From NCBI RefSeq assembly GCF_029227855.1, contig NZ_CP074356.1: 64,000 nucleotides of DNA, one strand, 5' to 3'. The notes below the pieces were generated by a model. The model made no database searches, was not told the origin of the DNA, and saw only the letters and a program-made list of their open reading frames with translations. How positions within the stretch are numbered: the stretch's first letter is position 1; the number at the start of each line of letters is the position of its first letter. The position numbers and the translations under genes were made by a program. Source of the DNA: Escherichia coli (GTDB taxonomy: Bacteria; Pseudomonadota; Gammaproteobacteria; Enterobacterales; Enterobacteriaceae). Shown here in pieces: positions 23,274 through 50,112 of the stretch.

Positions 23274-23915
23274 TTGTATCAGGATAAAATTCTTGTCCGC
23301 CAGCTCGGTCTTCAGCCTTACGAGCCAATTTCCCAGGCTATGCATGAATTCACCGATACCCGCGATGATAGTACCCTTGATGAAATCTGGCTGGTCGAGC
23401 ACTATCCGGTATTCACCCAAGGGCAGGCAGGAAAAGCGGAGCACATTTTAATGCCGGGTGATATTCCGGTGATTCAGAGCGATCGCGGTGGGCAGGTGAC
23501 TTATCACGGGCCGGGGCAACAGGTGATGTATGTGTTGCTTAACCTGAAACGCCGTAAACTCGGTGTGCGTGAACTGGTGACCTTGCTTGAGCAAACAGTG
23601 GTGAATACCCTGGCTGAACTGGGTATAGAAGCGCATCCTCGGGCTGACGCGCCTGGTGTCTATGTCGGGGAAAAGAAAATTTGCTCACTGGGTTTACGTA
23701 TTCGACGCGGTTGTTCATTCCACGGTCTGGCATTAAACGTCAATATGGATCTTTCACCATTTTTACGTATTAATCCTTGTGGGTATGCCGGAATGGAAAT
23801 GGCTAAAATATCACAATGGAAACCCGAAGCGACGACTAATAATATTGCACCGCGTTTACTGGAAAATATTTTAGCGCTACTAAACAATCCTGACTTCGAA
23901 TATATTACCGCTTAA
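23274..23915 (+). CDS. lipB: Octanoyltransferase LipB
   Basis: 213 aa, TTG start, N-terminus [12 protein letters not shown]. Confidence 0.93.
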
Positions 23916-24174
23916 TTGCATACCTCAATGGCCCAATTTACACTGGGTCATTACTCATAATACCTGCTAATGCTTTACATCTCCTTCGCGTTTGTATATT
24001 TTCTTTATCACTTGCAGAAATGCGATGCTACGCCTTGCTCCGTAACTCACCCCATTGATTAACTTATTGAAATAGTTGATTATGGTGAGCAAAAGCGTTC
24101 CGTTCCAATTAGACATAAGATTATTGTAATTTTTTTAAATATTATTTTTCCATGAATAAAATTGGAGTAAGTGC

Positions 24175-25128
24175 GTGGATAGTAATAATCAAATTGAAAC
24201 CTGTTTAAGCAGAAAGTCGTCAGAAGGTAAACCACAAATATTTACAACCTTACGAAATATTGATCTTAACCTTCTGACTATTTTTGAAGCTGTATATGTA
24301 CATAAAGGGATCGTTAATGCAGCGAAAGTGCTTAATCTGACACCCTCGGCAATCAGTCAGTCTATTCAGAAACTGCGCGTTATATTCCCTGACCCATTGT
24401 TTATTCGCAAAGGCCAGGGTGTCACTCCTACCGCATTTGCGATGCATCTACATGAGTATATCAGTCAGGGCCTTGAGTCCATTCTTGGCGCGCTGGATAT
24501 CGAAGGAAGCTATGATAAGCAACGAACGATAACTATTGCGACCACCCCCTCGGTCGGAGCCCTGGTCCTTCCTGTCATCTATCGGGCGATTAAATCTCAC
24601 TATCCGCAGCTTTTACTGCGCAACCCCCCCATCAGCGACGCGGAAAACCAACTCAGTCAGTTTCAAACCGATCTCATCATCGATAACATGTTTTGCACCA
24701 ATCGTACGGTGCAACATCATGTTCTGTTCACCGACAATATGGTGTTAATTTTCCGCGAGGGAAATCCACTACTCTCTTTAGAAGATGACAGGGAGACTAT
24801 CGACAACGCTGCGCATATACTCCTGTTACCGGAAGGGCAAAATTTCAGCGGTCTGCGGCAGAGAGTTCAAGAGATGTTTCCGGACCGGCAAATCAGTTTC
24901 ACCAGCTACAACATTTTGACAATCGCTGCACTGGTTGCCAACAGTGACATGTTAGCGATTATTCCCAGCCGTTTTTATAACCTGTTTAGCCGTTGCTGGC
25001 CGCTGGAAAAACTGCCTTTTCCGTCCTTAAATGATGAGCAAATAGATTTCTCTATCCACTACAACAAATTCAGCCTGCGTGATCCCATCCTGCACGGGGT
25101 AATAGATGTTATCCGTAATGCATTTTGA
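24175..25128 (+). CDS. ybeF: LysR-family transcriptional regulator YbeF
   Basis: 317 aa; N-terminal LysR HTH; GTG start; AT-rich gene with AT-rich flanks. Confidence 0.88.
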   Translation: MDSNNQIETCLSRKSSEGKPQIFTTLRNIDLNLLTIFEAVYVHKGIVNAAKVLNLTPSAISQSIQKLRVIFPDPLFIRKGQGVTPTAFAMHLHEYISQGLESILGALDIEGSYDKQRTITIATTPSVGALVLPVIYRAIKSHYPQLLLRNPPISDAENQLSQFQTDLIIDNMFCTNRTVQHHVLFTDNMVLIFREGNPLLSLEDDRETIDNAAHILLLPEGQNFSGLRQRVQEMFPDRQISFTSYNILTIAALVANSDMLAIIPSRFYNLFSRCWPLEKLPFPSLNDEQIDFSIHYNKFSLRDPILHGVIDVIRNAF

Positions 25129-28437: not shown

Positions 28438-28998
28438 TCAAAACTGAAAGCGCATCCAGGCAAAGTACACATTGCCATTGTTATAGGTACCCGGAATGTA
28501 GGTCATCTGAAAAGTCACTGGACCATAACCCACAGAGGCCAATGGCAGTAGAACCGGGAGAGGGATGTAATTCCAGTTATCGCGTGCCGTTACGCCAGCG
28601 GTGAATCCCAGTCCTAAATGAAAATTTTCATCCGCCAGCGGTCGCCAGGTACTTTCCCATCCGTATCCGGCAATCGGTTCCCATTTGTTCCACGAGTCCT
28701 TAAATGCCATGGCATACAGGCCATGCCAGTTTCCTTTTTCATCCCAACGCGACTGACCAAAACCGCCACCCCACAGTCGCTCGTTATAGCGATCGGTTTT
28801 TTCTTTGTCGTAAGCGAAACGAGCATGCCAGGTGATGGCAGGAATATATAAATCATAATGTTCAGGCTGTTGCCAGGTTTGTGTAATATTTTCTCCAAAC
28901 GTTGTCATCCACTCATCTGCGTTAGCAAAAACTTTACCAACGCTGATTAACTGAATAAAAACAAAGGAAAAGATAGCGACATATTTACTCACGTTCAT
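28438..28998 (-). CDS. pagP: Lipid A palmitoyltransferase PagP
   Basis: 186 aa outer-membrane beta-barrel with signal peptide [14 protein letters not shown]. Confidence 0.93.
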
Positions 28999-29483
28999 TT
29001 GTGACCATAAAACATTTATCAAAAATCTACTACTAGCATAGCAAAGCTACAATTAACATAACCTTAATAGCCCCAACATAAAGAACAATCTGAATAGCTG
29101 CTCTATTTATTTCCGCTTGTTTAAGTTAAATATTTCCGCGCATCGATTAAAGATGATGTATCGTTTTCTGCGATGGGAATAGTCAAAAAAGAAAAACCAA
29201 GTATTTTTTGATGACAAAATGCAACCAAGGAAAAATTTCTTTATTTTTTAATTGGATACAAAAATCACCTTAACGAAGAATATAATATATATCGTCAACC
29301 CATGCTCATGGCAGATTATTTTCTGAGCACGCAACCGCAGCTAACACCATTGCTATTAACAAATTTGCATCAATCCGCCATCAATTTACACACATTATTA
29401 TGTGGTAATTGCCAAACGCTAAATATGCGTTTTGTTATCTATGTATAAAAACAGCAACTTCAATGTCTTAATGGCAGTTTTTC

Positions 29484-29497
29484 TTGATTTTAATCAG
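29484..29497 (+). promoter_or_regulatory. Candidate FNR site upstream of dcuC
   Basis: TTGAT-TTTA-ATCAG, 9/10 match to TTGAT-N4-ATCAA, about 96 bp upstream of dcuC ATG. Confidence 0.5.
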
Positions 29498-29586
29498 CAT
29501 TCACCGCCAATTTATTGGGCATATTTTTTCCTTAAGTTTTAGGAATTTTTTATTATTTACTTTGGGGCCTGGAGACAGGAAAAATT

Positions 29587-31693: not shown

Positions 31694-33320
31694 TAGGTTT
31701 CACTTTCGGAATATAGATTGAAAATAAGGTACCGCAGGGATCATTATCTTCGAGAGTGATAACACCACCGCAGCGCGTTACGTAGCTGGCAATCAAGTAC
31801 AACCCAATGCCATGTTCACCGGGCTCGTCAGCACGCGTACTGACACCCTGCTCAAATATTTTGTCTCGTAGAGACTCTGGAACGCCGCAGCCCTGATCGG
31901 CGACTTCAATCACCACATCATCGCCTTCATCGCTGAGGAATAATTCAACGATCTTGTTTCCTTCATCGCTACGTAGGCTGGCTTCGAAGGCGTTATCAAG
32001 TAAATTGCCAACAATGGCTGCAAACTCGGTGCTGTCCAGTCCTGGCGGCAGTTGCGAAAGCTGACTTCCGGGGACGATGACCATTTTTAGCCCCAGTTCG
32101 CGGGCGCGCTGCACTTTACCAAAAAGCAGCCCCGCCACCTGGCGATCGGCAAACGCCTCGCGCAGGCTATCAATAAGCTGTTGCTGGGCCTGAGACTCCC
32201 CCTGCACCATCGCCAACACGCGATCATACTCTTTCATCTGCAACAGACCATTGAGCGTCGACATCCAATTGAGATGCTCGTGTCGCAATGTGCGCAGGCT
32301 CTCGACGTATTGTTTAATTTGCGTCAGTTGCGCATTGAGGGTGGATATTTCGTCTTTACTACGAAAGCTGATAATGGCCCCCAGCAAATCATCACCAGAA
32401 CGAATAGCTTCCCGGTTGGCAATAACGCTCAGACCGTTAAAGTTCGCCACCACATCCTGTCGTTTTTCATCAATCTGTTCGGTAAAGAAATCGGCGGGCC
32501 TGACCACTTCAGCAATGGGTTTACCCAACCATTGCCGTCCGGGGGAGCTCAGCCCCAGCATCTTTCTTGCGTTACGATTGATGGCGGTAATGTAACCGTG
32601 CGGATCCACCGCAATGAGCCCTTCATAAACCGAACTAAACAGCGCCTCTTGCTGACGGACCACGCGTGCGATTTGCTTTGGCTCCATGCCCATCATCTGC
32701 CGACGGATATGCGCGGCCAGGAACCACGACAGCAACATCAGAATCCCTAACAGCACGACAAACACGCCAGCCATCGGTAATAAAAACTCAGCCCGCCAGC
32801 TATCGATTTTACTCACCAGGTAGCCAATCGACACCACGCCGATGACTTTTCCATCGTCATCAAAGATTGGCGTTTTGGCACGCATCGCCATGCCAATTGA
32901 CCCTTTCCCGGTGATGAAGTAGCTCTCCCCTTTCTCCAGCGCGCCCGGTTTGGTGAACTGCATAGGATAACCAATTTTCTCCGGATTAGGATGGTAAAGA
33001 CGAATCGAGTGCCGATCGCCAATCACCACATAATCGAAATCAGTATCTCTTTGTAATTTATCAGCGATGGTCGCCAGCCTCTTGTAGTCACGCGTTTTCA
33101 CTGCGCTGATGATACTGTCATTAGAAGCAATAATTTTTGCCTGATTCATTGCCATATCGCGCACATGAAGCGTTAAATAGTCCTCAAAACTGGCCGTAAA
33201 ATATTGCGCCAGGGCTGCAATGACAAATATTGAGAACACCAGAATCAGCAAAAAGATACGCAGCGGAAATGCCAGTCTTTGGAAAAATGCAAACTGTTTA
33301 TTCTCGTTAAGCTGCAACAT
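31662..33320 (-). CDS. dpiB: Citrate-sensing histidine kinase DpiB (CitA)
   Basis: 552 aa from MLQLNENKQF; two TMs flanking a periplasmic domain, H-box and HATPase; 32-nt overlap with dpiA. Confidence 0.93.
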   Translation of the reverse strand: MLQLNENKQFAFFQRLAFPLRIFLLILVFSIFVIAALAQYFTASFEDYLTLHVRDMAMNQAKIIASNDSIISAVKTRDYKRLATIADKLQRDTDFDYVVIGDRHSIRLYHPNPEKIGYPMQFTKPGALEKGESYFITGKGSIGMAMRAKTPIFDDDGKVIGVVSIGYLVSKIDSWRAEFLLPMAGVFVVLLGILMLLSWFLAAHIRRQMMGMEPKQIARVVRQQEALFSSVYEGLIAVDPHGYITAINRNARKMLGLSSPGRQWLGKPIAEVVRPADFFTEQIDEKRQDVVANFNGLSVIANREAIRSGDDLLGAIISFRSKDEISTLNAQLTQIKQYVESLRTLRHEHLNWMSTLNGLLQMKEYDRVLAMVQGESQAQQQLIDSLREAFADRQVAGLLFGKVQRARELGLKMVIVPGSQLSQLPPGLDSTEFAAIVGNLLDNAFEASLRSDEGNKIVELFLSDEGDDVVIEVADQGCGVPESLRDKIFEQGVSTRADEPGEHGIGLYLIASYVTRCGGVITLEDNDPCGTLFSIYIPKVKPNDSSINPIDR

Positions 33321-33699
33321 TGTTTTCCTTGCGGGTTGTCCCGAGCCTCTTTGACGAATGTAATTAAAATGTTGAATCAAAATACATAGATATTAAATAT
33401 AATCGTGGCAAATTTTATTCATTAAATCAATTAAATCACTTAAACCTGCGGGTCATTTCGTAATTACATTAATTAAAAAACTTAAAACCATTAAATAAAT
33501 AAAAAACCACTAACTCTATGTGAAATAAATCAAAATTTCACGCTGCAATACTCCTTAGGATGTATAGCGAAAGGAGAAAAAGATATACCTCGATCGCCCC
33601 CCTTTCTCCCAAGTGAAAATAAAAGGTTATCAGTTTGCAACATCGAACAACATTTGTTGCAAATCGATAACAACATGCACCTTCAGGATACTATTTATT

Positions 33700-34758
33700 A
33701 TGTTCGGCAATGATATTTTCACCCGTGTAAAACGTTCAGAAAATAAAAAAATGGCGGAAATCGCCCAATTCCTGCATGAAAATGATTTGAGCGTTGACAC
33801 CACAGTCGAAGTATTTATTACCGTAACCCGCGATGAAAAGCTTATCGCGTGCGGTGGAATTGCCGGAAATATTATTAAATGCGTTGCTATCAGTGAATCC
33901 GTTCGCGGTGAAGGACTGGCGCTGACATTAGCCACCGAGCTAATTAACCTCGCCTATGAGCGGCACAGCACGCATCTGTTTATTTATACCAAAACCGAAT
34001 ACGAGGCGCTGTTCCGCCAGTGCGGTTTTTCCACGCTGACCAGTGTACCCGGCGTGATGGTGCTGATGGAAAACAGCGCCACGCGACTGAAACGCTATGC
34101 CGAATCGCTGAAAAAATTTCGTCATCCAGGGAACAAGATTGGCTGCATTGTGATGAACGCCAATCCCTTTACGAATGGTCACCGTTATCTGATTCAACAG
34201 GCTGCAGCACAGTGCGACTGGTTGCATCTGTTTTTAGTTAAAGAAGATTCTTCACGCTTTCCCTATGAAGACCGGCTGGATCTGGTGTTAAAAGGCACCG
34301 CCGATATTCCACGCCTGACTGTGCATCGCGGCTCCGAATACATCATCTCCCGCGCTACGTTCCCTTGCTACTTCATTAAAGAACAGAGCGTCATTAACCA
34401 TTGTTACACCGAAATTGATCTGAAGATTTTCCGTCAGTACCTCGCTCCCGCGCTGGGTGTAACTCACCGCTTTGTCGGTACTGAACCCTTTTGTCGCGTT
34501 ACCGCCCAGTACAACCAGGATATGCGCTACTGGCTGGAAACGCCGACTATCTCCGCACCGCCCATCGAACTGGTTGAAATTGAGCGGCTGCGTTACCAGG
34601 AGATGCCGATATCCGCTTCCCGGGTACGTCAACTGCTGGCGAAAAACGATCTCACGGCTATCGCGCCGCTGGTCCCTGCAGTCACGCTGCATTATTTGCA
34701 GAACCTGCTTGAGCACTCCCGCCAGGACGCGGCAGCTCGTCAAAAGACCCCCGCATGA
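33700..34758 (+). CDS. citC: [Citrate lyase] ligase CitC
   Basis: 352 aa from MFGNDIF; start choice uncertain, ORF open from 33613. Confidence 0.88.
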   Translation: MFGNDIFTRVKRSENKKMAEIAQFLHENDLSVDTTVEVFITVTRDEKLIACGGIAGNIIKCVAISESVRGEGLALTLATELINLAYERHSTHLFIYTKTEYEALFRQCGFSTLTSVPGVMVLMENSATRLKRYAESLKKFRHPGNKIGCIVMNANPFTNGHRYLIQQAAAQCDWLHLFLVKEDSSRFPYEDRLDLVLKGTADIPRLTVHRGSEYIISRATFPCYFIKEQSVINHCYTEIDLKIFRQYLAPALGVTHRFVGTEPFCRVTAQYNQDMRYWLETPTISAPPIELVEIERLRYQEMPISASRVRQLLAKNDLTAIAPLVPAVTLHYLQNLLEHSRQDAAARQKTPA

Positions 34759-41537: not shown

Positions 41538-42246
41538 GTGCACAGAAAACCCCCAGCTAGGCTGGGGGTTCCGGAAAGCTTTCAGCTTTGAGCCTGTTAT
41601 TAAAACCCCTTTTGATTTGTTAAAACACCTTGCGGTCTGGCAACTGCAAGTGTCAAACAAGAAATCAAAAGGGGGTCCCAATGGGGAACGAAAAGAGCTT
41701 AGCGCACACCCGATGGAACTGTAAATATCACATAGTTTTTGCGCCAAAATACCGAAGACAGGTGTTCTACAGAGAGAAGCGTAGAGCAATAGGCAGTATT
41801 TTGAGAAAGCTGTGTGAGTGGAAAAGCGTACGGATTCTGGAAGCTGAATGCTGTGCAGATCATATCCATATGCTTGTGGAGATCCCGCCTAAAATGAGCG
41901 TATCCGGGTTTATGGGATATCTGAAAGGGAAAAGCAGTCTGATGCTTTACGAGCAGTTTGGTGATTTGAAATTCAAATACAGGAACAGGGAGTTCTGGTG
42001 CAGAGGGTACTACGTCGATACAGTGGGTAAGAACACGGCGAAGATACAGGATTACACAAAGCACCAGCTTGAAGAGGATAAAATGGGAGAGCAGTTATCG
42101 ATTCCCTATCCGGGCAGCCCGTTTACGGGCCGTAAGTAACGAAGTTGGATGCAAATGTCAGATCGTGTGCGCCTGTTAGGGCGCGGCTGGTAAGAGAGCC
42201 TTATAGGCGCATTTGAAAAACCTCCGGCTATGCCGGAGGATATTTA
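41538..42246 (+). mobile_element. IS200-family insertion sequence (IS200/IS605 family), boundaries approximate
   Basis: Single Y1 HUH transposase ORF with left-end hairpin (41549..41569), 69-nt stem sequestering the tnpA RBS (41606..41674) and right-end hairpin (42221..42239); about 709 bp, no terminal inverted repeats. Confidence 0.6.
41681..42139 (+). CDS. tnpA: IS200 transposase TnpA (HUH single-strand transposase)
   Basis: 152 aa; HuH motif (DHIHMLV) and C-terminal Tyr region; aaaggggg RBS. Confidence 0.93.
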   Translation: MGNEKSLAHTRWNCKYHIVFAPKYRRQVFYREKRRAIGSILRKLCEWKSVRILEAECCADHIHMLVEIPPKMSVSGFMGYLKGKSSLMLYEQFGDLKFKYRNREFWCRGYYVDTVGKNTAKIQDYTKHQLEEDKMGEQLSIPYPGSPFTGRK

Positions 42247-42942: not shown

Positions 42943-43065
42943 CGCCTGGTTTTATTTATTTTCCAGCTCAATAGCAAATTCAGATCAAATCAGCCTCGCA
43001 AATCATAGATTCATAACCAATAATGTGCTGTTATGTATACATGCAAAAACAAGGAGAGAATGCTT

Positions 43066-43494
43066 ATGTACAAGACAATCATCATGCCAGTGGATGTTTT
43101 CGAAATGGAATTGAGCGACAAAGCTGTTCGCCACGCTGAATTCCTCGCCCAGGATGACGGAGTTATTCATCTACTTCACGTACTACCCGGGTCAGCCAGC
43201 CTGAGCCTGCACCGTTTTGCCGCTGATGTGCGTCGTTTTGAAGAGCATCTGCAACATGAAGCAGAAGAACGTCTGCAAACGATGGTCAGCCACTTCACCA
43301 TCGATCCTTCCCGCATTAAGCAACATGTCCGTTTTGGTAGCGTGCGGGATGAAGTCAATGAGTTGGCAGAAGAACTGGGGGCTGATGTTGTAGTTATCGG
43401 TTCGCGCAACCCTTCGATTTCGACCCATCTGTTAGGTTCTAACGCCTCGAGCGTGATCCGCCACGCCAATCTGCCGGTGCTGGTTGTGCGTTAA
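43066..43494 (+). CDS. uspG: Universal stress protein UspG
   Basis: 142 aa from [10 protein letters not shown]; aaggagag RBS. Confidence 0.93.
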
Positions 43495-46285: not shown

Positions 46286-47032
46286 ATGTTAAAAAAGATA
46301 CTTTTACTGGCTCTGCTTCCTGCAATCGCCTTCGCAGAGGAACTTCCTGATCCAGTAAAAGCGATTGAAAAACAGGGTATTACGATCATCAAAACATTCG
46401 ATGCTCCCGGAGGAATGAAAGGTTATCTCGGAAAGTATCAGGATATGGGCGTCACCATCTACCTGACTCCAGATGGTAAGCACGCTATCTCCGGTTACAT
46501 GTACAACGAGAAAGGTGAAAACCTGAGTAACACACTTATCGAAAAAGAAATTTACGCACCAGCCGGACGCGAAATGTGGCAACGGATGGAACAATCCCAC
46601 TGGCTCCTCGACGGTAAAAAAGATGCGCCGGTCATTGTCTACGTCTTCGCCGATCCTTTCTGCCCATATTGTAAACAGTTCTGGCAGCAGGCTCGTCCGT
46701 GGGTAGATTCTGGCAAAGTGCAATTAAGAACATTGTTGGTTGGCGTTATCAAGCCAGAAAGCCCGGCGACAGCAGCGGCAATTCTTGCCGCCAAAGATCC
46801 CGCAAAAACCTGGCAAGAATATGAAGCCTCTGGTGGCAAGCTTAAGCTAAACGTGCCTGCAAACGTAAGTACAGAGCAAATGAAAGTGTTAAGCGATAAC
46901 GAGAAACTGATGGACGATCTGGGGGCAAATGTCACGCCAGCTATCTATTACATGAGTAAGGAAAATACACTGCAACAGGCCGTGGGGTTGCCCGATCAGA
47001 AAACGCTTAATATCATTATGGGGAATAAATAA
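46286..47032 (+). CDS. dsbG: Periplasmic thiol:disulfide oxidoreductase DsbG
   Basis: 248 aa from [17 protein letters not shown]; CPYC active site; in-frame upstream ATG at 46226. Confidence 0.92.
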
Positions 47033-47240
47033 AAGATAATTCATGGATGGTTGAACTATATCCCTGCTTTTCAACCATCCTAAAAAAGCATGAATTGCTC
47101 GCTCTGCCCTAAGTGGCTGTGCTATTTTAGTAAAACTTAATCCTGAGTTAAGCAAAAAAACATAATCAATAAAAATATATACGCAAAAAACATTGATTAA
47201 GTGAATATACCATGGAAGAAAAATATAACCGGAGTAGTGT

Positions 47241-48143
47241 ATGGCCAATCTCTACGACTTGAAAAAGTTCGACTTAAATCTTCTTGTCATATTTGAGTGT
47301 ATTTATCAGCATTTAAGCATTAGCAAGGCTGCTGAATCACTATATATCACCCCGTCAGCCGTGAGCCAGTCGTTACAACGCTTACGTGCGCAATTTAATG
47401 ACCCTTTATTCATTCGCTCAGGAAAAGGTATCGCGCCGACGACGACAGGGTTAAATCTGCATCACCATCTTGAGAAAAACCTCAGAGGCCTTGAACAAAC
47501 AATTAATATAGTCAATAAGTCCGAACTAAAGAAAAACTTTATTATCTACGGCCCTCAGCTCATTTCTTGCTCTAATAATAGTATGCTGATCCGCTGCCTA
47601 CGGCAAGATGCCTCTGTCGAGATTGAGTGCCATGATATCCTCATGTCAGCAGAGAATGCTGAAGAACTGTTGGTTCACCGCAAAGCCGATCTGGTGATCA
47701 CCCAAATGCCAGTGATCAGCCGTTCCGTCATTTGCATGCCATTGCATACAATTCGCAATACTCTAATTTGTAGTAATAAGCATCCGCGAATTACTGACAA
47801 TAGCACTTATGAACAAATTATGACAGAAGAGTTCACCCAATTAATATCCAAATCAGCAGGAGTTGATGATATTCAAATGGAAATAGACGAGAAGTTTATG
47901 AATCGCAAAATTTCATTTCGTGGTTCCTCTTTGCTGACAATCATTAATAGCATTGCAGTTACAGATTTACTGGGAATAGTCCCCTATGAACTTTATAACT
48001 CCCACCGTGACTTTCTTAATTTAAAAGAGATAAAACTAGAACATCCGTTACCTTCAATAAAGCTTTACATTTCCTATAATAAATCTTCTTTAAATAATTT
48101 GGTGTTCTCCCGATTTATTGATCGTCTAAATGAGAGTTTTTGA
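47241..48143 (+). CDS. ybdO: LysR-family transcriptional regulator YbdO
   Basis: 300 aa; N-terminal LysR HTH; strongly AT-rich coding sequence. Confidence 0.9.
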   Translation: MANLYDLKKFDLNLLVIFECIYQHLSISKAAESLYITPSAVSQSLQRLRAQFNDPLFIRSGKGIAPTTTGLNLHHHLEKNLRGLEQTINIVNKSELKKNFIIYGPQLISCSNNSMLIRCLRQDASVEIECHDILMSAENAEELLVHRKADLVITQMPVISRSVICMPLHTIRNTLICSNKHPRITDNSTYEQIMTEEFTQLISKSAGVDDIQMEIDEKFMNRKISFRGSSLLTIINSIAVTDLLGIVPYELYNSHRDFLNLKEIKLEHPLPSIKLYISYNKSSLNNLVFSRFIDRLNESF

Positions 48144-48289
48144 TATATAACCTCAGACAGCTATTATAACTTTCACCTATTTATTCACAGCACGAATGAA
48201 AAATAAAACACTCTGCTTTTCAGTGTTTACTTTATAATTAACAGTCTTATCTCACTGATCACCCCGTAACGTTCAGAGAGCGTTTTCAG

Positions 48290-49510
48290 ATGTCTATTTA
48301 TAAAATCCCGCTTCCACTGAATATTCTGGAAGCTGCAAAAGAACGTATTACCTGGACACTTAACACCCTACCCCGTGTCTGCGTTTCTTTTTCGGGTGGT
48401 AAAGATTCCGGATTAATGCTGCATCTGACCGCCGAACTTGCCCGACAAATGGGCAAAAAAATTTGTGTTTTATTTATCGACTGGGAAGCTCAGTTCTCTT
48501 GCACCATTAACTATGTTCAGTCCCTGCGCGAGTTGTACACCGATGTCATCGAAGAGTTTTACTGGGTTGCGCTCCCGCTTACAACGCAAAATTCCCTATC
48601 ACAATACCAACCCGAATGGCAGTGCTGGGAACCTGATGTCGAATGGGTACGTCAGCCCCCGCAAGATGCGATAACCGATCCTGACTTTTTCTCCTTTTAC
48701 CAGCCTGGCATGACCTTCGAACAATTTGTGCGTGAGTTTGCCGAATGGTTTTCGCAAAAACGTCCGGCGGCGATGATGATCGGCATCCGTGCGGATGAGT
48801 CCTACAACCGTTTTGTCGCCATCGCCAGTTTAAATAAACAACGTTTTGCCGATGATAAGCCCTGGACTACTGCCGCACCAGGCGGTCATAGCTGGTACAT
48901 ATACCCCATCTACGACTGGAAAGTCGCTGATATCTGGACCTGGTATGCTAGCCATCAACGCCTCTGTAACCCACTGTATAATATAATGTATCAGGCAGGC
49001 GTTCCTCTACGTCATATGCGAATTTGCGAACCTTTTGGTCCGGAACAACGGCAAGGATTATGGCTCTATCACGTTATCGAACCGGATCGCTGGGCTGCTA
49101 TGTGCGCACGAGTCAGCGGGGTAAAAAGTGGCGGCATTTACGCCGGACATGACAACCATTTTTATGGTCATCGGAAAATCCTCAAGCCCGAACATTTAGA
49201 CTGGCAGGAGTATGCATTATTGCTACTCAACAGCATGCCGGAGAAAACAGCTGAGCATTATCGCAATAAAATCGCCATTTATTTGCACTGGTATCAGAAA
49301 AAAGGCATCGAGGTTCCACAAACCCAGCAAGGGGACATTGGCGCGAAAGATATCCCCTCCTGGCGGCGAATATGCAAAGTTTTACTCAATAACGATTACT
49401 GGTGTCGGGCATTATCATTTAGCCCGACCAAAGCGAAGAACTATCAGCGTTATAACGAACGAATAAAAGGAAAACGTCAGGAATGGGGGATACTATGCAA
49501 CAACGATTAA
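48290..49510 (+). CDS. ybdN: PP-loop ATP pyrophosphatase of the PAPS-reductase superfamily, YbdN
   Basis: 406 aa; PP-loop SGGKDS (in VSFSGGKDSGLM) near N-terminus; 3' end overlaps ybdM. Confidence 0.9.
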   Translation: MSIYKIPLPLNILEAAKERITWTLNTLPRVCVSFSGGKDSGLMLHLTAELARQMGKKICVLFIDWEAQFSCTINYVQSLRELYTDVIEEFYWVALPLTTQNSLSQYQPEWQCWEPDVEWVRQPPQDAITDPDFFSFYQPGMTFEQFVREFAEWFSQKRPAAMMIGIRADESYNRFVAIASLNKQRFADDKPWTTAAPGGHSWYIYPIYDWKVADIWTWYASHQRLCNPLYNIMYQAGVPLRHMRICEPFGPEQRQGLWLYHVIEPDRWAAMCARVSGVKSGGIYAGHDNHFYGHRKILKPEHLDWQEYALLLLNSMPEKTAEHYRNKIAIYLHWYQKKGIEVPQTQQGDIGAKDIPSWRRICKVLLNNDYWCRALSFSPTKAKNYQRYNERIKGKRQEWGILCNND

Positions 49511-50112
49511 CGCAGGATTTAACCCAATTTCTCGCCAGCTTGCCGGAAGACGATCGCATCAAAGCGATTAATGAAATCCGCATGGCGATCCATCAGGTTA
49601 GCCCCTTTCGAGAAGAGCCAGTGGATTGCGTTCTGTGGGTTAAAAACAGCCAACTTATGCCTAATGATTACAACCCAAACAACGTGGCACCACCCGAAAA
49701 AAAACTGCTGAAAAAATCCATTGAAATAGATGGTTTTACCCAACCCATTGTGGTCACGCATACGGATAAAAATGCCCTGGAAATCGTGGATGGTTTTCAC
49801 CGCCATGAAATTGGTAAAGGCTCATCATCGTTAAAATTACGCTTAAAAGGTTATTTGCCGGTGACCTGTCTGGAAGGTACGCGTAATCAACGCATCGCCG
49901 CGACTATTCGTCATAATCGCGCCCGTGGACGTCACCAAATCACTGCCATGTCAGAAATCGTCCGTGAACTCAGCCAGTTGGGATGGGACGATCATAAAAT
50001 CGGCAAAGAGCTGGGAATGGACAGCGACGAAGTGCTACGCCTGAAGCAAATTAACGGCCTGCAAGAGTTGTTTGCCGACCGTCAATATTCCCGCGCCTGG
50101 ACGGTTAAATAG
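49483..50112 (+). CDS. ybdM: ParB/sulfiredoxin-like domain protein YbdM
   Basis: 209 aa; ParB N-domain-like signature (PIVV...ALEIVDGFHRH); alternative ATG at 49495 has a better-spaced ggggga RBS. Confidence 0.88.
   Translation: MGDTMQQRLTQDLTQFLASLPEDDRIKAINEIRMAIHQVSPFREEPVDCVLWVKNSQLMPNDYNPNNVAPPEKKLLKKSIEIDGFTQPIVVTHTDKNALEIVDGFHRHEIGKGSSSLKLRLKGYLPVTCLEGTRNQRIAATIRHNRARGRHQITAMSEIVRELSQLGWDDHKIGKELGMDSDEVLRLKQINGLQELFADRQYSRAWTVK

Follow-up and report, generated by a model that had tools for sequence, protein, structure and literature searches.

The ybdO gene (citR) of Escherichia coli is probably best explained as an old, vertically inherited and H-NS-silenced LysR-type regulator gene that exists in sharply separated allele classes and whose product would control the adjacent ybdNM genes from conserved dyads. 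Its AT-richness would then not be left over from a recent import. The silencing of ybdO by H-NS and its control of ybdNM have already been published; the allele classes, the recombinant in the strain analysed and the conserved candidate dyads appear to be additions. On the whole, the system was known before and the new detail is modest, and the direct value of the preliminary description of the locus is low because it restated published biology.

The analysed stretch of DNA (the window, 64 kb) differs from E. coli JNEC-KY178 (NZ_AP045174.1) by 4 mismatches over its whole length, and its 4-kb ybdO locus is matched at ≥99% by only 1 of 5,426 complete genomes. Based on the open reading frame, Pfam and RefSeq, ybdO lies at 47241-48143 on the + strand and encodes a 300-aa transcriptional regulator of the LysR type, labelled 'DNA-binding transcriptional repressor CitR' in RefSeq. 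The protein has the N-terminal winged helix-turn-helix (HTH_1, PF00126, residues 12-70, E = 8e-19, 67.7 bits vs a cut-off of 26.6) and the C-terminal effector-binding domain (LysR_substrate, PF03466, residues 135-299, E = 9e-10, 38.7 bits vs a cut-off of 28). In the segment 47033-48289, ybdO is flanked by the intergenic regions towards dsbG (208 bp, 32.2% GC) and towards ybdN (146 bp, 34.2% GC); the segment as a whole has 37.2% GC compared to 51.6% for the window.

As the preliminary description had stated, ybdO and its flanks are AT-rich relative to the neighbouring genes. With 38.8% GC, ybdO is the lowest of the 62 annotated window genes (mean 52.2%, sd 4.1, z = -3.6) and has the high AT content associated with xenogeneic DNA. 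The calculation of GC and codon adaptation that had been proposed also placed GC3 (40.5%; mean 56.8%, z = -2.8) and CAI (0.194; mean 0.349, sd 0.106, with weights after Sharp & Li 1987) at the window minimum. GC1 and GC2 are likewise low, and the protein is built from AT-rich codons (FYMINK 33% vs 23%). Two AT-rich lobes, at ~47000-47300 and ~47800-48300, are found at ybdO, which is the sole gene-length AT-rich tract within the window; the three other 500-bp stretches with ≤36% GC centre on the lipB-ybeF, pagP-dcuC and dpiB-citC intergenic regions. The strongly AT-rich block ends at the ybdN start codon, since the GC content of ybdN and ybdM is only mildly low (47%).

Inspection of published H-NS ChIP data, which had also been suggested, showed that H-NS occupies ybdO's coding sequence and the DNA upstream of it in three strains of E. 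coli, and that it represses the ybdO promoter (Higashi 2016, PMC4720273). H-NS binds PybdO in vitro in gel shifts, and repression is eased by acid pH (Fan 2022, PMC9141747). Together, occupancy or derepression has been published for K-12, SE11, SE15 and K1 (PMC4720273, PMC9141747), with a modest, ~2-fold repression in K1. Using ATG = 47241, we mapped the upstream H-NS-dependent element (URE; -250 to -176 from the ATG in the original study) to 46991-47065 and the downstream element (DRE, +27 to +164) to 47267-47404 (PMC4720273). The URE stretch has 33% GC, with 32% of it within A/T runs of ≥6, and within the DRE the K-12 and SE11 alleles also have a negative element that does not depend on H-NS (PMC4720273). 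The transcription start site (TSS), 107 nt 5′ of the ATG (PMC4720273), falls on position 47134. Together with conservation, it places the ybdO promoter at an extended -10 element, TGcTATTTT (47120-47128, + strand), and the promoter block CTGTGCTATTTTAG is kept from E. coli through Citrobacter and Salmonella. It has been shown in the literature that H-NS nucleates on the AT-rich URE and DRE flanking this promoter and holds transcription from it low, and that the repression loosens at acid pH and early in stationary phase. Matches to the high-affinity consensus of H-NS, TCGATAAATT (≤2 mismatches), showed no enrichment at ybdO (4 weak matches, with ~1 per kb everywhere) and were uninformative. 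Directly 3′ of the dsbG stop codon, we read an inverted repeat, GGATGGTTGAA ... TTCAACCATCC (47045-47080), from the sequence. It is kept in all E. coli alleles and has an analogous repeat in Citrobacter. It is not followed by a T-run and was not called by the terminator scan, which found nothing between dsbG, ybdO and ybdN.

The genes downstream of ybdO form an IbrA/IbrB-like pair. The first, ybdN (48290-49510, + strand), encodes an IbrA-like protein of 406 aa with PAPS-reductase/PP-loop (PF01507, 1e-14) and DUF3440 (PF11922, 3e-32) domains. It is followed by the IbrB-like ybdM (49483-50112, + strand, 209 aa), which overlaps it by 28 bp. YbdM has a ParB N-terminal-like domain (ParB_N, PF02195) that scores 24.6 bits, just under the cut-off of 26.3, and its RefSeq label is 'IbrB-like domain-containing protein'. 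The matches of YbdN to DndC (2e-5) and BrxP (1e-4) were weak and partial. Further Dnd (DndA-E) or BREX (Brx) components are absent from the vicinity of ybdN, and we rejected a Dnd/BREX-type anti-phage defence because these matches come without a full gene set. Solved structures offered nothing useful for YbdN or YbdM, and a targeted literature search found no mechanistic work on either gene.

The LysR regulator indeed lies directly upstream of ybdNM, as had been claimed, with both genes on one strand and ybdN starting 146 bp after the ybdO stop codon; the arrangement is thus not the divergent one. A divergent target operon is a typical but not obligatory layout for LysR regulators. YbdO was renamed CitR and described as a ybdNM repressor (Rodionova 2022, PMC9068703). 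In that study, a ChIP-exo peak was located 5′ of citR, and deletion of citR raised ybdN (log2 5.5) and ybdM (log2 2.5), the basal counts of both being very low (PMC9068703). The idea of a silenced, conditionally expressed LysR module controlling ybdNM was therefore right, although already in print (PMC4720273, PMC9141747, PMC9068703).

Two dyads of the form ATTCA-N5-TGAAT are candidate operators for YbdO. Dyad 1, ATTGATTAAGTGAAT (47192-47206, + strand), has 9 of 10 matches to this pattern, with T-N11-A inside. It is located in the ybdO leader at ~+65 from the TSS, and in all Escherichia alleles and some Citrobacter it is found 41-45 nt 5′ of the ATG (shuffle P ≤0.03 in most). As a candidate autoregulatory site, it fits the ChIP-exo peak that was reported 5′ of citR (PMC9068703). 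Dyad 2, ATTCACAGCACGAAT (48183-48197, + strand), a candidate recognition site that reads ATTC-N7-GAAT with T-N11-A inside, is located ~100 nt 5′ of the ybdN start codon, at ~-55 relative to the predicted start of ybdN transcription. All Escherichia alleles have it in this position with a score of 9-10 of 10, and it is also present in Citrobacter, Klebsiella and Raoultella. Within it, ATTCA and AAT are invariant, and the remaining alignment columns are largely saturated. The intergenic alignment across genera failed because the regions are too diverged, and the cross-genus scan was done position by position; this motif scan did not detect the dyad in Enterobacter, Lelliottia, S. diarizonae or K. 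pneumoniae. Window-wide the 15-bp pattern is not enriched (28 matches observed, 28.9 expected), and the case for these dyads as candidate operators rests on position and conservation.

The predicted ybdN promoter has a -10 hexamer, TATAAT (48233-48238, + strand), that does not vary among the nine Escherichia alleles aligned, and no recognisable -35 element. Dyad 2 and this hexamer are the only invariant blocks of the saturated ybdO-ybdN intergenic region. A second promoter-like site at 48140-48167 (10 of 12 matches), which would place dyad 2 downstream of the ybdN start, was not preferred, its conservation being confined to class A, the ybdO allele class of the window (see below). Similarly, a hairpin of class A, AAACACT-N9-AGTGTTT (48207-48229), was dropped as a functional element because class B does not conserve it, and a possible FNR half-site, TTGAT (48140-48144), is paired with a poor second half. 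We infer that YbdO binds the two conserved dyads. Binding at the leader dyad 1 would result in autoregulation, and at dyad 2 YbdO would sit ~55 bp 5′ of the predicted start of the -10-only ybdN promoter. A recognition site at about this distance upstream of the start is the usual LysR layout. In the absence of inducer YbdO would keep the IbrA/IbrB-like ybdNM operon off, and some ligand would then switch it. The conserved dyads thus provide a concrete candidate operator and a possible route to the function of the IbrAB-like ybdNM pair.

The increase of ybdNM in the citR deletion could also stem from a polar effect. In the strongest of the alternatives, which we nevertheless consider unlikely, the AT-richness is a functionless by-product of weak expression and codon selection, H-NS is incidental, and YbdO does not truly control ybdNM, so that the increase reflects read-through from the resistance cassette or the loss of H-NS-bound DNA beside the ybdN promoter. 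The mutants were made in the BW25113 background, and the paper describes neither cassette removal nor complementation; moreover, no terminator-like structure separates ybdO from ybdN, and the 3′ AT-rich lobe of ybdO adjoins the ybdN promoter. In addition, ybdO is kept in lineages that lost ybdNM (Leclercia, ESNIH1 and R. terrigena), indicating that ybdNM is not its sole purpose. However, other low-CAI genes of the window hold a GC3 of 0.48-0.63, so weak expression alone does not give a GC3 of 0.40. The invariance of only the dyad and TATAAT in an otherwise saturated intergenic region, and the adjacency of ybdO and ybdNM across about 12 genera, also argue against this alternative.

When genomes matching the window span were compared, the identities at ybdO fell into two groups. 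Among 5,357 genomes, 3,565 were ≥95% identical to the window and 1,774 were 60-80% identical (about 78%), with only 18 in between. Class A includes the window, K-12 and Sakai, class B includes CFT073, IAI39, 13P477T and CE2050, and a rare third ybdO class was designated class C. The block that defines the classes (47100-48255) covers the promoter-proximal region, the ybdO coding sequence and the ybdN promoter, and differs by 15-33% between A and B; its left edge is strain-dependent, from ~47060 to ~47150. Raw synonymous distances in ybdO are 0.71 (A-B), 0.48 (A-C) and 0.73 (B-C), compared to 0.02-0.24 in the flanks and 0.07-0.13 within a class. Between A and B, pN is 0.064 and dN/dS is ~0.03, and residues 1-83 of YbdO are identical despite a pS of 0.63 over codons 1-95. 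The two classes differ by 11% over the protein, ~16% in the effector domain and ~30% in the ybdN promoter region. No donor lineage was found for class A or class C.

A junction followed by a second dimorphic segment was found at 48256-48500. From 48256 onwards, the window leaves the K-12/Sakai-like haplotype for one that is linked to class B elsewhere: in the bins 48300-48499, it differs by 11-15% from K-12 and Sakai and by 0-7% from CFT073, IAI39, 13P477T and CE2050. By its sequence, the window strain is a recombinant too, the breakpoint lying immediately 5′ of ybdN, in which class A would have been joined to a ybdN haplotype usually linked to class B.

Higashi et al. proposed that H-NS shelters ybdO from selection, which leads to rapid in-place divergence of promoter and coding sequence among E. 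coli. In line with this, ybdO is among the top 50 genes for substitution rate, its regulation differs between SE15 and SE11/K-12 (PMC4720273), and YbdO outpaces its neighbours between genera. We consider this explanation improbable, more so than the by-product one. The identity distribution is bimodal rather than graded, and the within-class dS is like that of the flanks, whereas the between-class dS is saturated. A dN/dS of ~0.03 and an invariant HTH were observed, while relaxed selection would be expected to increase dN instead of dS. The edges of the divergent block are also sharp, and the block is separable from its flanks in the window strain and CE2050. Saturated between-class dS, the low dN/dS and normal within-class diversity therefore point to allelic replacement or ancient polymorphism, not to H-NS-driven drift in place.

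The sequence comparison thus indicates that the horizontal process at ybdO is whole-allele replacement, or long coexistence of alleles, within Escherichia via homologous recombination. The unit of ybdO promoter, ybdO and ybdN promoter would have been exchanged whole by homologous recombination, or would represent an ancient polymorphism, giving rise to classes A, B and C with identical DNA-binding domains and operator half-sites and effector domains ~16% apart. A further step, which we put forward tentatively and hold to be somewhat less probable than its opposite, is that this unit is a long-lived, exchangeable allelic cassette in Escherichia whose alleles may sense different signals. In such a cassette, A/E-type and B2/F-type E. 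coli lineages, with the rare third class, share the DNA-binding domain and operators, and the effector domains and silencing elements have diverged at silent sites as between species. If true, different signals could explain why YbdO reportedly promotes virulence in a K1 strain and attenuates it in an avian strain, and could also cover its reported action on citrate and ybdNM genes in K-12. Moreover, a textbook example of H-NS-facilitated diversification would instead be one of allelic replacement or balancing selection. YbdO experiments in K-12, K1 and APEC strains may in any case compare different alleles, and this locus, which has served as an illustration of sequence diversification facilitated by H-NS, bears the signature of allelic replacement instead.

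The age of the locus follows from its gene order. The order ahpCF-(dsbG)-ybdO-ybdNM-ybdL is shared by about 12 enterobacterial genera, so that ybdO lacks the patchy distribution of acquired DNA, and no integrase, tRNA, IS or other mobility genes were found at the module borders. The slot is occupied in Citrobacter, Salmonella diarizonae, Enterobacter, Lelliottia, Klebsiella, Raoultella, Kluyvera, Pseudocitrobacter, Pluralibacter and Superficieibacter, and by ybdO alone, without ybdNM, in Leclercia. The contig scan used E. coli-specific peptides, and E. fergusonii was not among the matches listed. Losses of ybdO are secondary, for instance an ISKpn26 deletion in ET120; weak or partial-match genomes were rejected as carriers of an alternative cassette, the one examined (ET120) being this IS-mediated deletion. 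Between genera YbdO is 46-61% identical, compared to 94-99% for AhpC, so it evolves faster than its neighbours. The GC content of ybdO moves with the host genome (0.37-0.39 in Escherichia, Citrobacter and Salmonella, 0.43-0.54 in Klebsiella, Enterobacter and Raoultella), yet stays below its flanks by about 8-13 points in nearly every genus (~4 in Raoultella terrigena), which is not the composition of a donor. From the persistence of this deficit in nearly all genera, we infer that the AT-richness of ybdO is old and has been maintained across Enterobacteriaceae. Since AT-richness and H-NS binding are both conserved throughout the bacterial family, they should not be taken as a sign of recent foreign origin in this case. 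Of the preliminary description's silenced, horizontally acquired module, the silencing stands (PMC4720273, PMC9141747), whereas a recent acquisition is not supported given the synteny, the lack of mobility genes and the conserved GC deficit; any acquisition must predate the Escherichia-Klebsiella-Enterobacter radiation. That ybdO, with or without ybdNM, is a recent foreign island silenced by H-NS for its unameliorated donor composition is the least probable explanation and already largely refuted: the gene is AT-rich at all three codon positions, has the lowest CAI of the window and an AT-codon-rich product, Higashi et al. class it as horizontally transferred (PMC4720273), and phages and plasmids commonly carry members of the ybdNM family (IbrAB), but the gene order is constant in about 12 genera with borders free of integrase, tRNA and IS, and GC tracks the host (0.39 in Citrobacter, 0.46 in Enterobacter), which is unexpected for a single-donor recent import.

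Compared to K-12 ybdO (b0603), the window carries the same gene, with a 98% identical protein and shared neighbours, promoter block and TSS position, but its class A allele is combined with the ybdN 5′ haplotype that elsewhere accompanies class B. Like bgl and proU, with which Higashi et al. compared it, the ybdO promoter is flanked by upstream and downstream H-NS elements; its repression is modest, however, and it has an extra H-NS-independent negative element inside the coding region, the position of which depends on the allele (PMC4720273). YbdN and YbdM share their domains and overlapping two-gene architecture with IbrA/IbrB, the 'co-activators of prophage gene expression' with copies on the ECOR-9 island, phages and plasmids. 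Homologues of ybdN occur on phages and plasmids, and the IbrA of Escherichia phage PhiR5_2 shares 57% identity with YbdN. In contrast to the phage copy, which has antirepressor genes upstream, the chromosomal ybdNM pair is fixed at one site and has a dedicated LysR gene upstream. Among enterobacterial LysR regulator genes, leuO is likewise a conserved chromosomal gene in AT-rich DNA that is silenced by H-NS and expressed under limited conditions. Neither leuO nor ybdO would be a recent island, and we know of no allelic dimorphism at leuO. LeuO is a wide-acting antagonist of H-NS, whereas YbdO has few reported binding sites, two by ChIP-exo (PMC9068703).

The chromosome of E. coli JNEC-KY178 (NZ_AP045174.1) differs from the window by four mismatches in 64 kb. 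In this sequence ybdO (47241-48143), annotated in RefSeq as 'DNA-binding transcriptional repressor CitR', follows dsbG (46286-47032) and precedes ybdN (48290-49510) and ybdM (49483-50112), all on the + strand. The group is bordered by ahpF-ahpC to the left of dsbG and by ybdL to the right of ybdM, both on the - strand. The GC content of ybdO is 38.8%, the lowest among the 62 annotated genes of the window (mean 52.2%, sd 4.1, z = -3.6). Its GC3 (40.5%) and its CAI (0.194, with Sharp-Li weights) are window minima as well, GC1 and GC2 are also low, and the intergenic regions on either side have 32% and 34% GC. These values confirm the preliminary description, in which ybdO and its flanks were AT-rich compared with their neighbours. 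Two AT-rich lobes are found at ybdO (47000-47300 and 47800-48300), ybdN and ybdM are only mildly low (47% GC), and all remaining window stretches of equal AT-richness are centred on intergenic regions. These are three patches with 32-36% GC: 23700-24200 (lipB-ybeF), 28800-29500 (pagP-dcuC) and 33100-33700 (dpiB-citC). The first of these lies upstream of ybeF, a LysR paralogue of ybdO with 45% GC, the third-lowest value in the window. Additionally, an IS200C-family tnpA is present between rna and rnk (41681-42139), a site that is empty in K-12, ET120, CFT073 and Sakai.

Silencing of ybdO by H-NS has been studied before. H-NS occupies the upstream and coding region of ybdO in K-12, SE11 and SE15, the gene is derepressed in an hns mutant, and its transcription was mapped to start 107 nt before the ATG (Higashi et al. 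2016, PMC4720273). Repression depends on two elements, located upstream (-250 to -176) and downstream (+27 to +164), and H-NS-independent negative elements were also mapped within the gene, which the authors regard as horizontally transferred (PMC4720273). Furthermore, Fan et al. (2022, PMC9141747) demonstrated H-NS binding to PybdO in gel shifts, found that hns deletion derepresses PybdO about 2-fold and that acid pH relieves the repression, and identified YbdO as an activator of kpsM. Rodionova et al. (2022, PMC9068703) renamed YbdO as CitR, found a ChIP-exo peak upstream of citR and termed CitR a repressor of ybdNM, as both genes, whose basal counts were very low, rose on citR deletion (ybdN by log2 5.5, ybdM by log2 2.5). 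The reading of ybdO as a silenced, conditionally expressed LysR module that controls ybdNM is therefore right, but it was already known (PMC4720273, PMC9141747, PMC9068703). Our additions are modest: a candidate operator, the allele classes of ybdO and the recombinant haplotype of the window.

The repression of ybdNM by CitR was deduced from RNA-seq of a deletion mutant in BW25113 (PMC9068703). Since complementation and cassette removal are not described for this mutant, and our terminator scan found no terminator between ybdO and ybdN, the rise of ybdNM may be a polar effect or result from the loss of neighbouring H-NS-bound DNA. A conserved candidate dyad upstream of ybdN argues for direct control of ybdN by YbdO, whichever its sign, repressing or activating. 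When nine Escherichia ybdO-ybdN intergenic regions were aligned, they were near saturation, and upstream of the conserved ybdN leader the longest runs without variation were ATTCA, adjoining AAT and AAA triplets, and TATAAT (48233-48238). The candidate operator, ATTCA-N5-TGAAT at 48183-48197, contains the invariant half-sites ATTCA and AAT and has T-N11-A inside. In every Escherichia allele it scores 9-10/10, some 100 nt ahead of the ybdN ATG, and it is also found in several Citrobacter, Klebsiella and Raoultella; upstream of ybdN in Enterobacter, Lelliottia, S. diarizonae and K. pneumoniae it was not found. If ybdN transcription starts near 48245, this dyad would be centred at about -55 of a promoter without a -35 element, matching the usual LysR layout. 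A second candidate, ATTGA-N5-TGAAT (47192-47206), is present in all Escherichia some 42 nt ahead of the ybdO ATG, in agreement with the ChIP-exo peak reported upstream of citR (PMC9068703). The bare pattern is not enriched over the whole window; the case for the dyad rests on position and conservation. Upstream of ybdO itself, the block CTGTGCTATTTTAG is kept from E. coli through Salmonella and contains an extended -10 element (47120-47128), 6 nt upstream of the published start at 47134 (PMC4720273).

When the span 47033-48289 was searched against 5,426 complete E. coli genomes, 3,565 were at least 95% identical, 1,774 fell at 60-80% (about 78%) and only 18 lay between. Class A is found in the window, K-12 (phylogroup A) and O157 Sakai (E), and class B in CFT073 (B2), IAI39 (F), 13P477T, CE2050 and ST131. 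A third class, C, is rare and occurs in a contig that is otherwise ordinary E. coli; its identity is about 85% to A and 77% to B. Between A and B, ybdO is 79-80% identical, whereas flanking genes are 94-98% identical. The raw synonymous distance of ybdO is 0.71 for A-B, 0.48 for A-C and 0.73 for B-C, compared to 0.02-0.24 for the flanks of the same strains; the between-class values are saturated to the degree seen between E. coli and E. albertii (0.75) or Salmonella (0.80). Higashi et al. read the diversity of ybdO as drift in place under the shelter of H-NS. This does not fit our data, in which purifying selection is strong, the split is single and deep, and classes have normal internal diversity (synonymous distance 0.07-0.13). 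The A-B pN of 0.064 is about half that between E. coli and E. albertii, and dN/dS is about 0.03. Residues 1-83, the DNA-binding domain, are identical in A and B, yet pS is 0.63 over codons 1-95, and all 33-35 replacements are in the effector domain. The data fit either allele replacement, with a diverged Escherichia lineage as the source and homologous recombination as the route, or an ancient polymorphism. Class B may be the older resident allele, because a class-B-like allele of a divergent 'E. coli' lineage sits among about equally diverged flanks; for classes A and C we found no donor. In ET120 (L005, 10042-11411), ISKpn26 (IS5-like) cuts ybdO after 108 bp, and ybdO through entF is deleted, including most enterobactin genes.

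From about 47100 to 48255 the window differs by 0-6% from K-12/Sakai and by 14-33% from class B strains, whereas at 48300-48499 the differences are 11-15% to K-12/Sakai, 0-7% to class B strains and 0-1% to CE2050. The window haplotype is thus recombinant, with a breakpoint within the conserved ybdN leader, and the unit exchanged would be the promoter-proximal region of ybdO, ybdO and the ybdN promoter. This explains why a match of ≥99% to the 4-kb locus is found in only 1 of 5,426 genomes. Among E. coli strains ybdN is a mosaic of diverged segments (48300-48500, 48900-49000); between the window and K-12/Sakai it differs by 11-15% over the first 200 bp, and its overall dS between the window and K-12 is 0.30. 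We also observed that ybdR, encoding a zinc-dependent alcohol dehydrogenase, is missing between yldA and uspG (42943-43065). It is likewise missing in CFT073, IAI39, 13P477T and CE2050, but Sakai, ET120 and the class C contig have it. The window thus pairs a class A ybdO with a flank that lacks ybdR, as is typical of class B strains. The adjacent uspG (43066-43494) has a high pS among E. coli, with 0.16-0.21 in comparisons to class B strains and 0.30 to the SCPM lineage, unusual relative to the neighbouring ahpCF.

A scan of species-representative genomes yielded at least 40 ybdO loci. The order ybdO-ybdN-ybdM occupies the same slot, from ahpCF (with or without dsbG) to ybdL, in Citrobacter, Salmonella diarizonae, Enterobacter, Lelliottia, Klebsiella, Raoultella, Kluyvera, Pseudocitrobacter, Pluralibacter and Superficieibacter. 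Leclercia, 'ESNIH1' and R. terrigena have lost ybdNM and kept ybdO; the role of YbdO therefore goes beyond ybdNM. In loci of other genera, YbdO is 46-61% identical to the E. coli protein, compared to 94-99% for AhpC, 82-87% for YbdL and 73-86% for YbdN; ybdO is fast-evolving, yet orthologous by position. Its GC content lies 8-13 points under the flanks in nearly every genus and moves with the host (Citrobacter 0.39 vs ~0.50, Enterobacter 0.46 vs 0.56, Klebsiella 0.43-0.47 vs 0.55-0.57), with R. terrigena as an exception (about 4 points). With the same slot shared across genera and a GC deficit that shifts with the host, ybdO is unlike a gene that a single donor supplied in recent times, and the horizontal acquisition proposed from its AT-richness is contradicted as far as a recent event is concerned. 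If ybdO was ever acquired, this predates the radiation of these genera and its AT-richness has persisted since; we infer that it is maintained, for example as the basis of H-NS-dependent control.

YbdN consists of a PAPS-reductase/PP-loop domain and DUF3440, and YbdM has a ParB-N-like domain; targeted searches found no solved structures or mechanistic literature for either. Membership of a defence system was considered and rejected, as DndC and BrxP gave only weak matches and the neighbourhood has no other defence genes. At several loci ybdN is damaged or lost while ybdO is intact (L007, L048, L040; L027, L028, L041, L043, L044), for instance by an internal stop in CE2050 (L007, 6090-7310) and a frameshift in the class C contig (L048, 8049-9270); in Kluyvera genomosp. 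3 only residues 1-228 match. Some database records are probably mislabelled: a 2.5-kb 'Bacteroides sp.' MAG contig (L008) carrying E. coli ybdO-ybdN at 97-99% identity, a 2.8-kb 'Salmonella phage S.Kent 1-2-1' record with a chromosomal-type ybdN, and several 4.8-4.9-Mb 'plasmids' that are chromosomes (mislabelled phage and plasmid matches H27, H39, H40, H42). The ybdNM family is also found on mobile elements, in 224 phage and 855 plasmid records. Among these, IbrA/IbrB of Escherichia phage PhiR5_2 show 57% identity, and the phage pair, unlike ybdNM, has no LysR neighbour.
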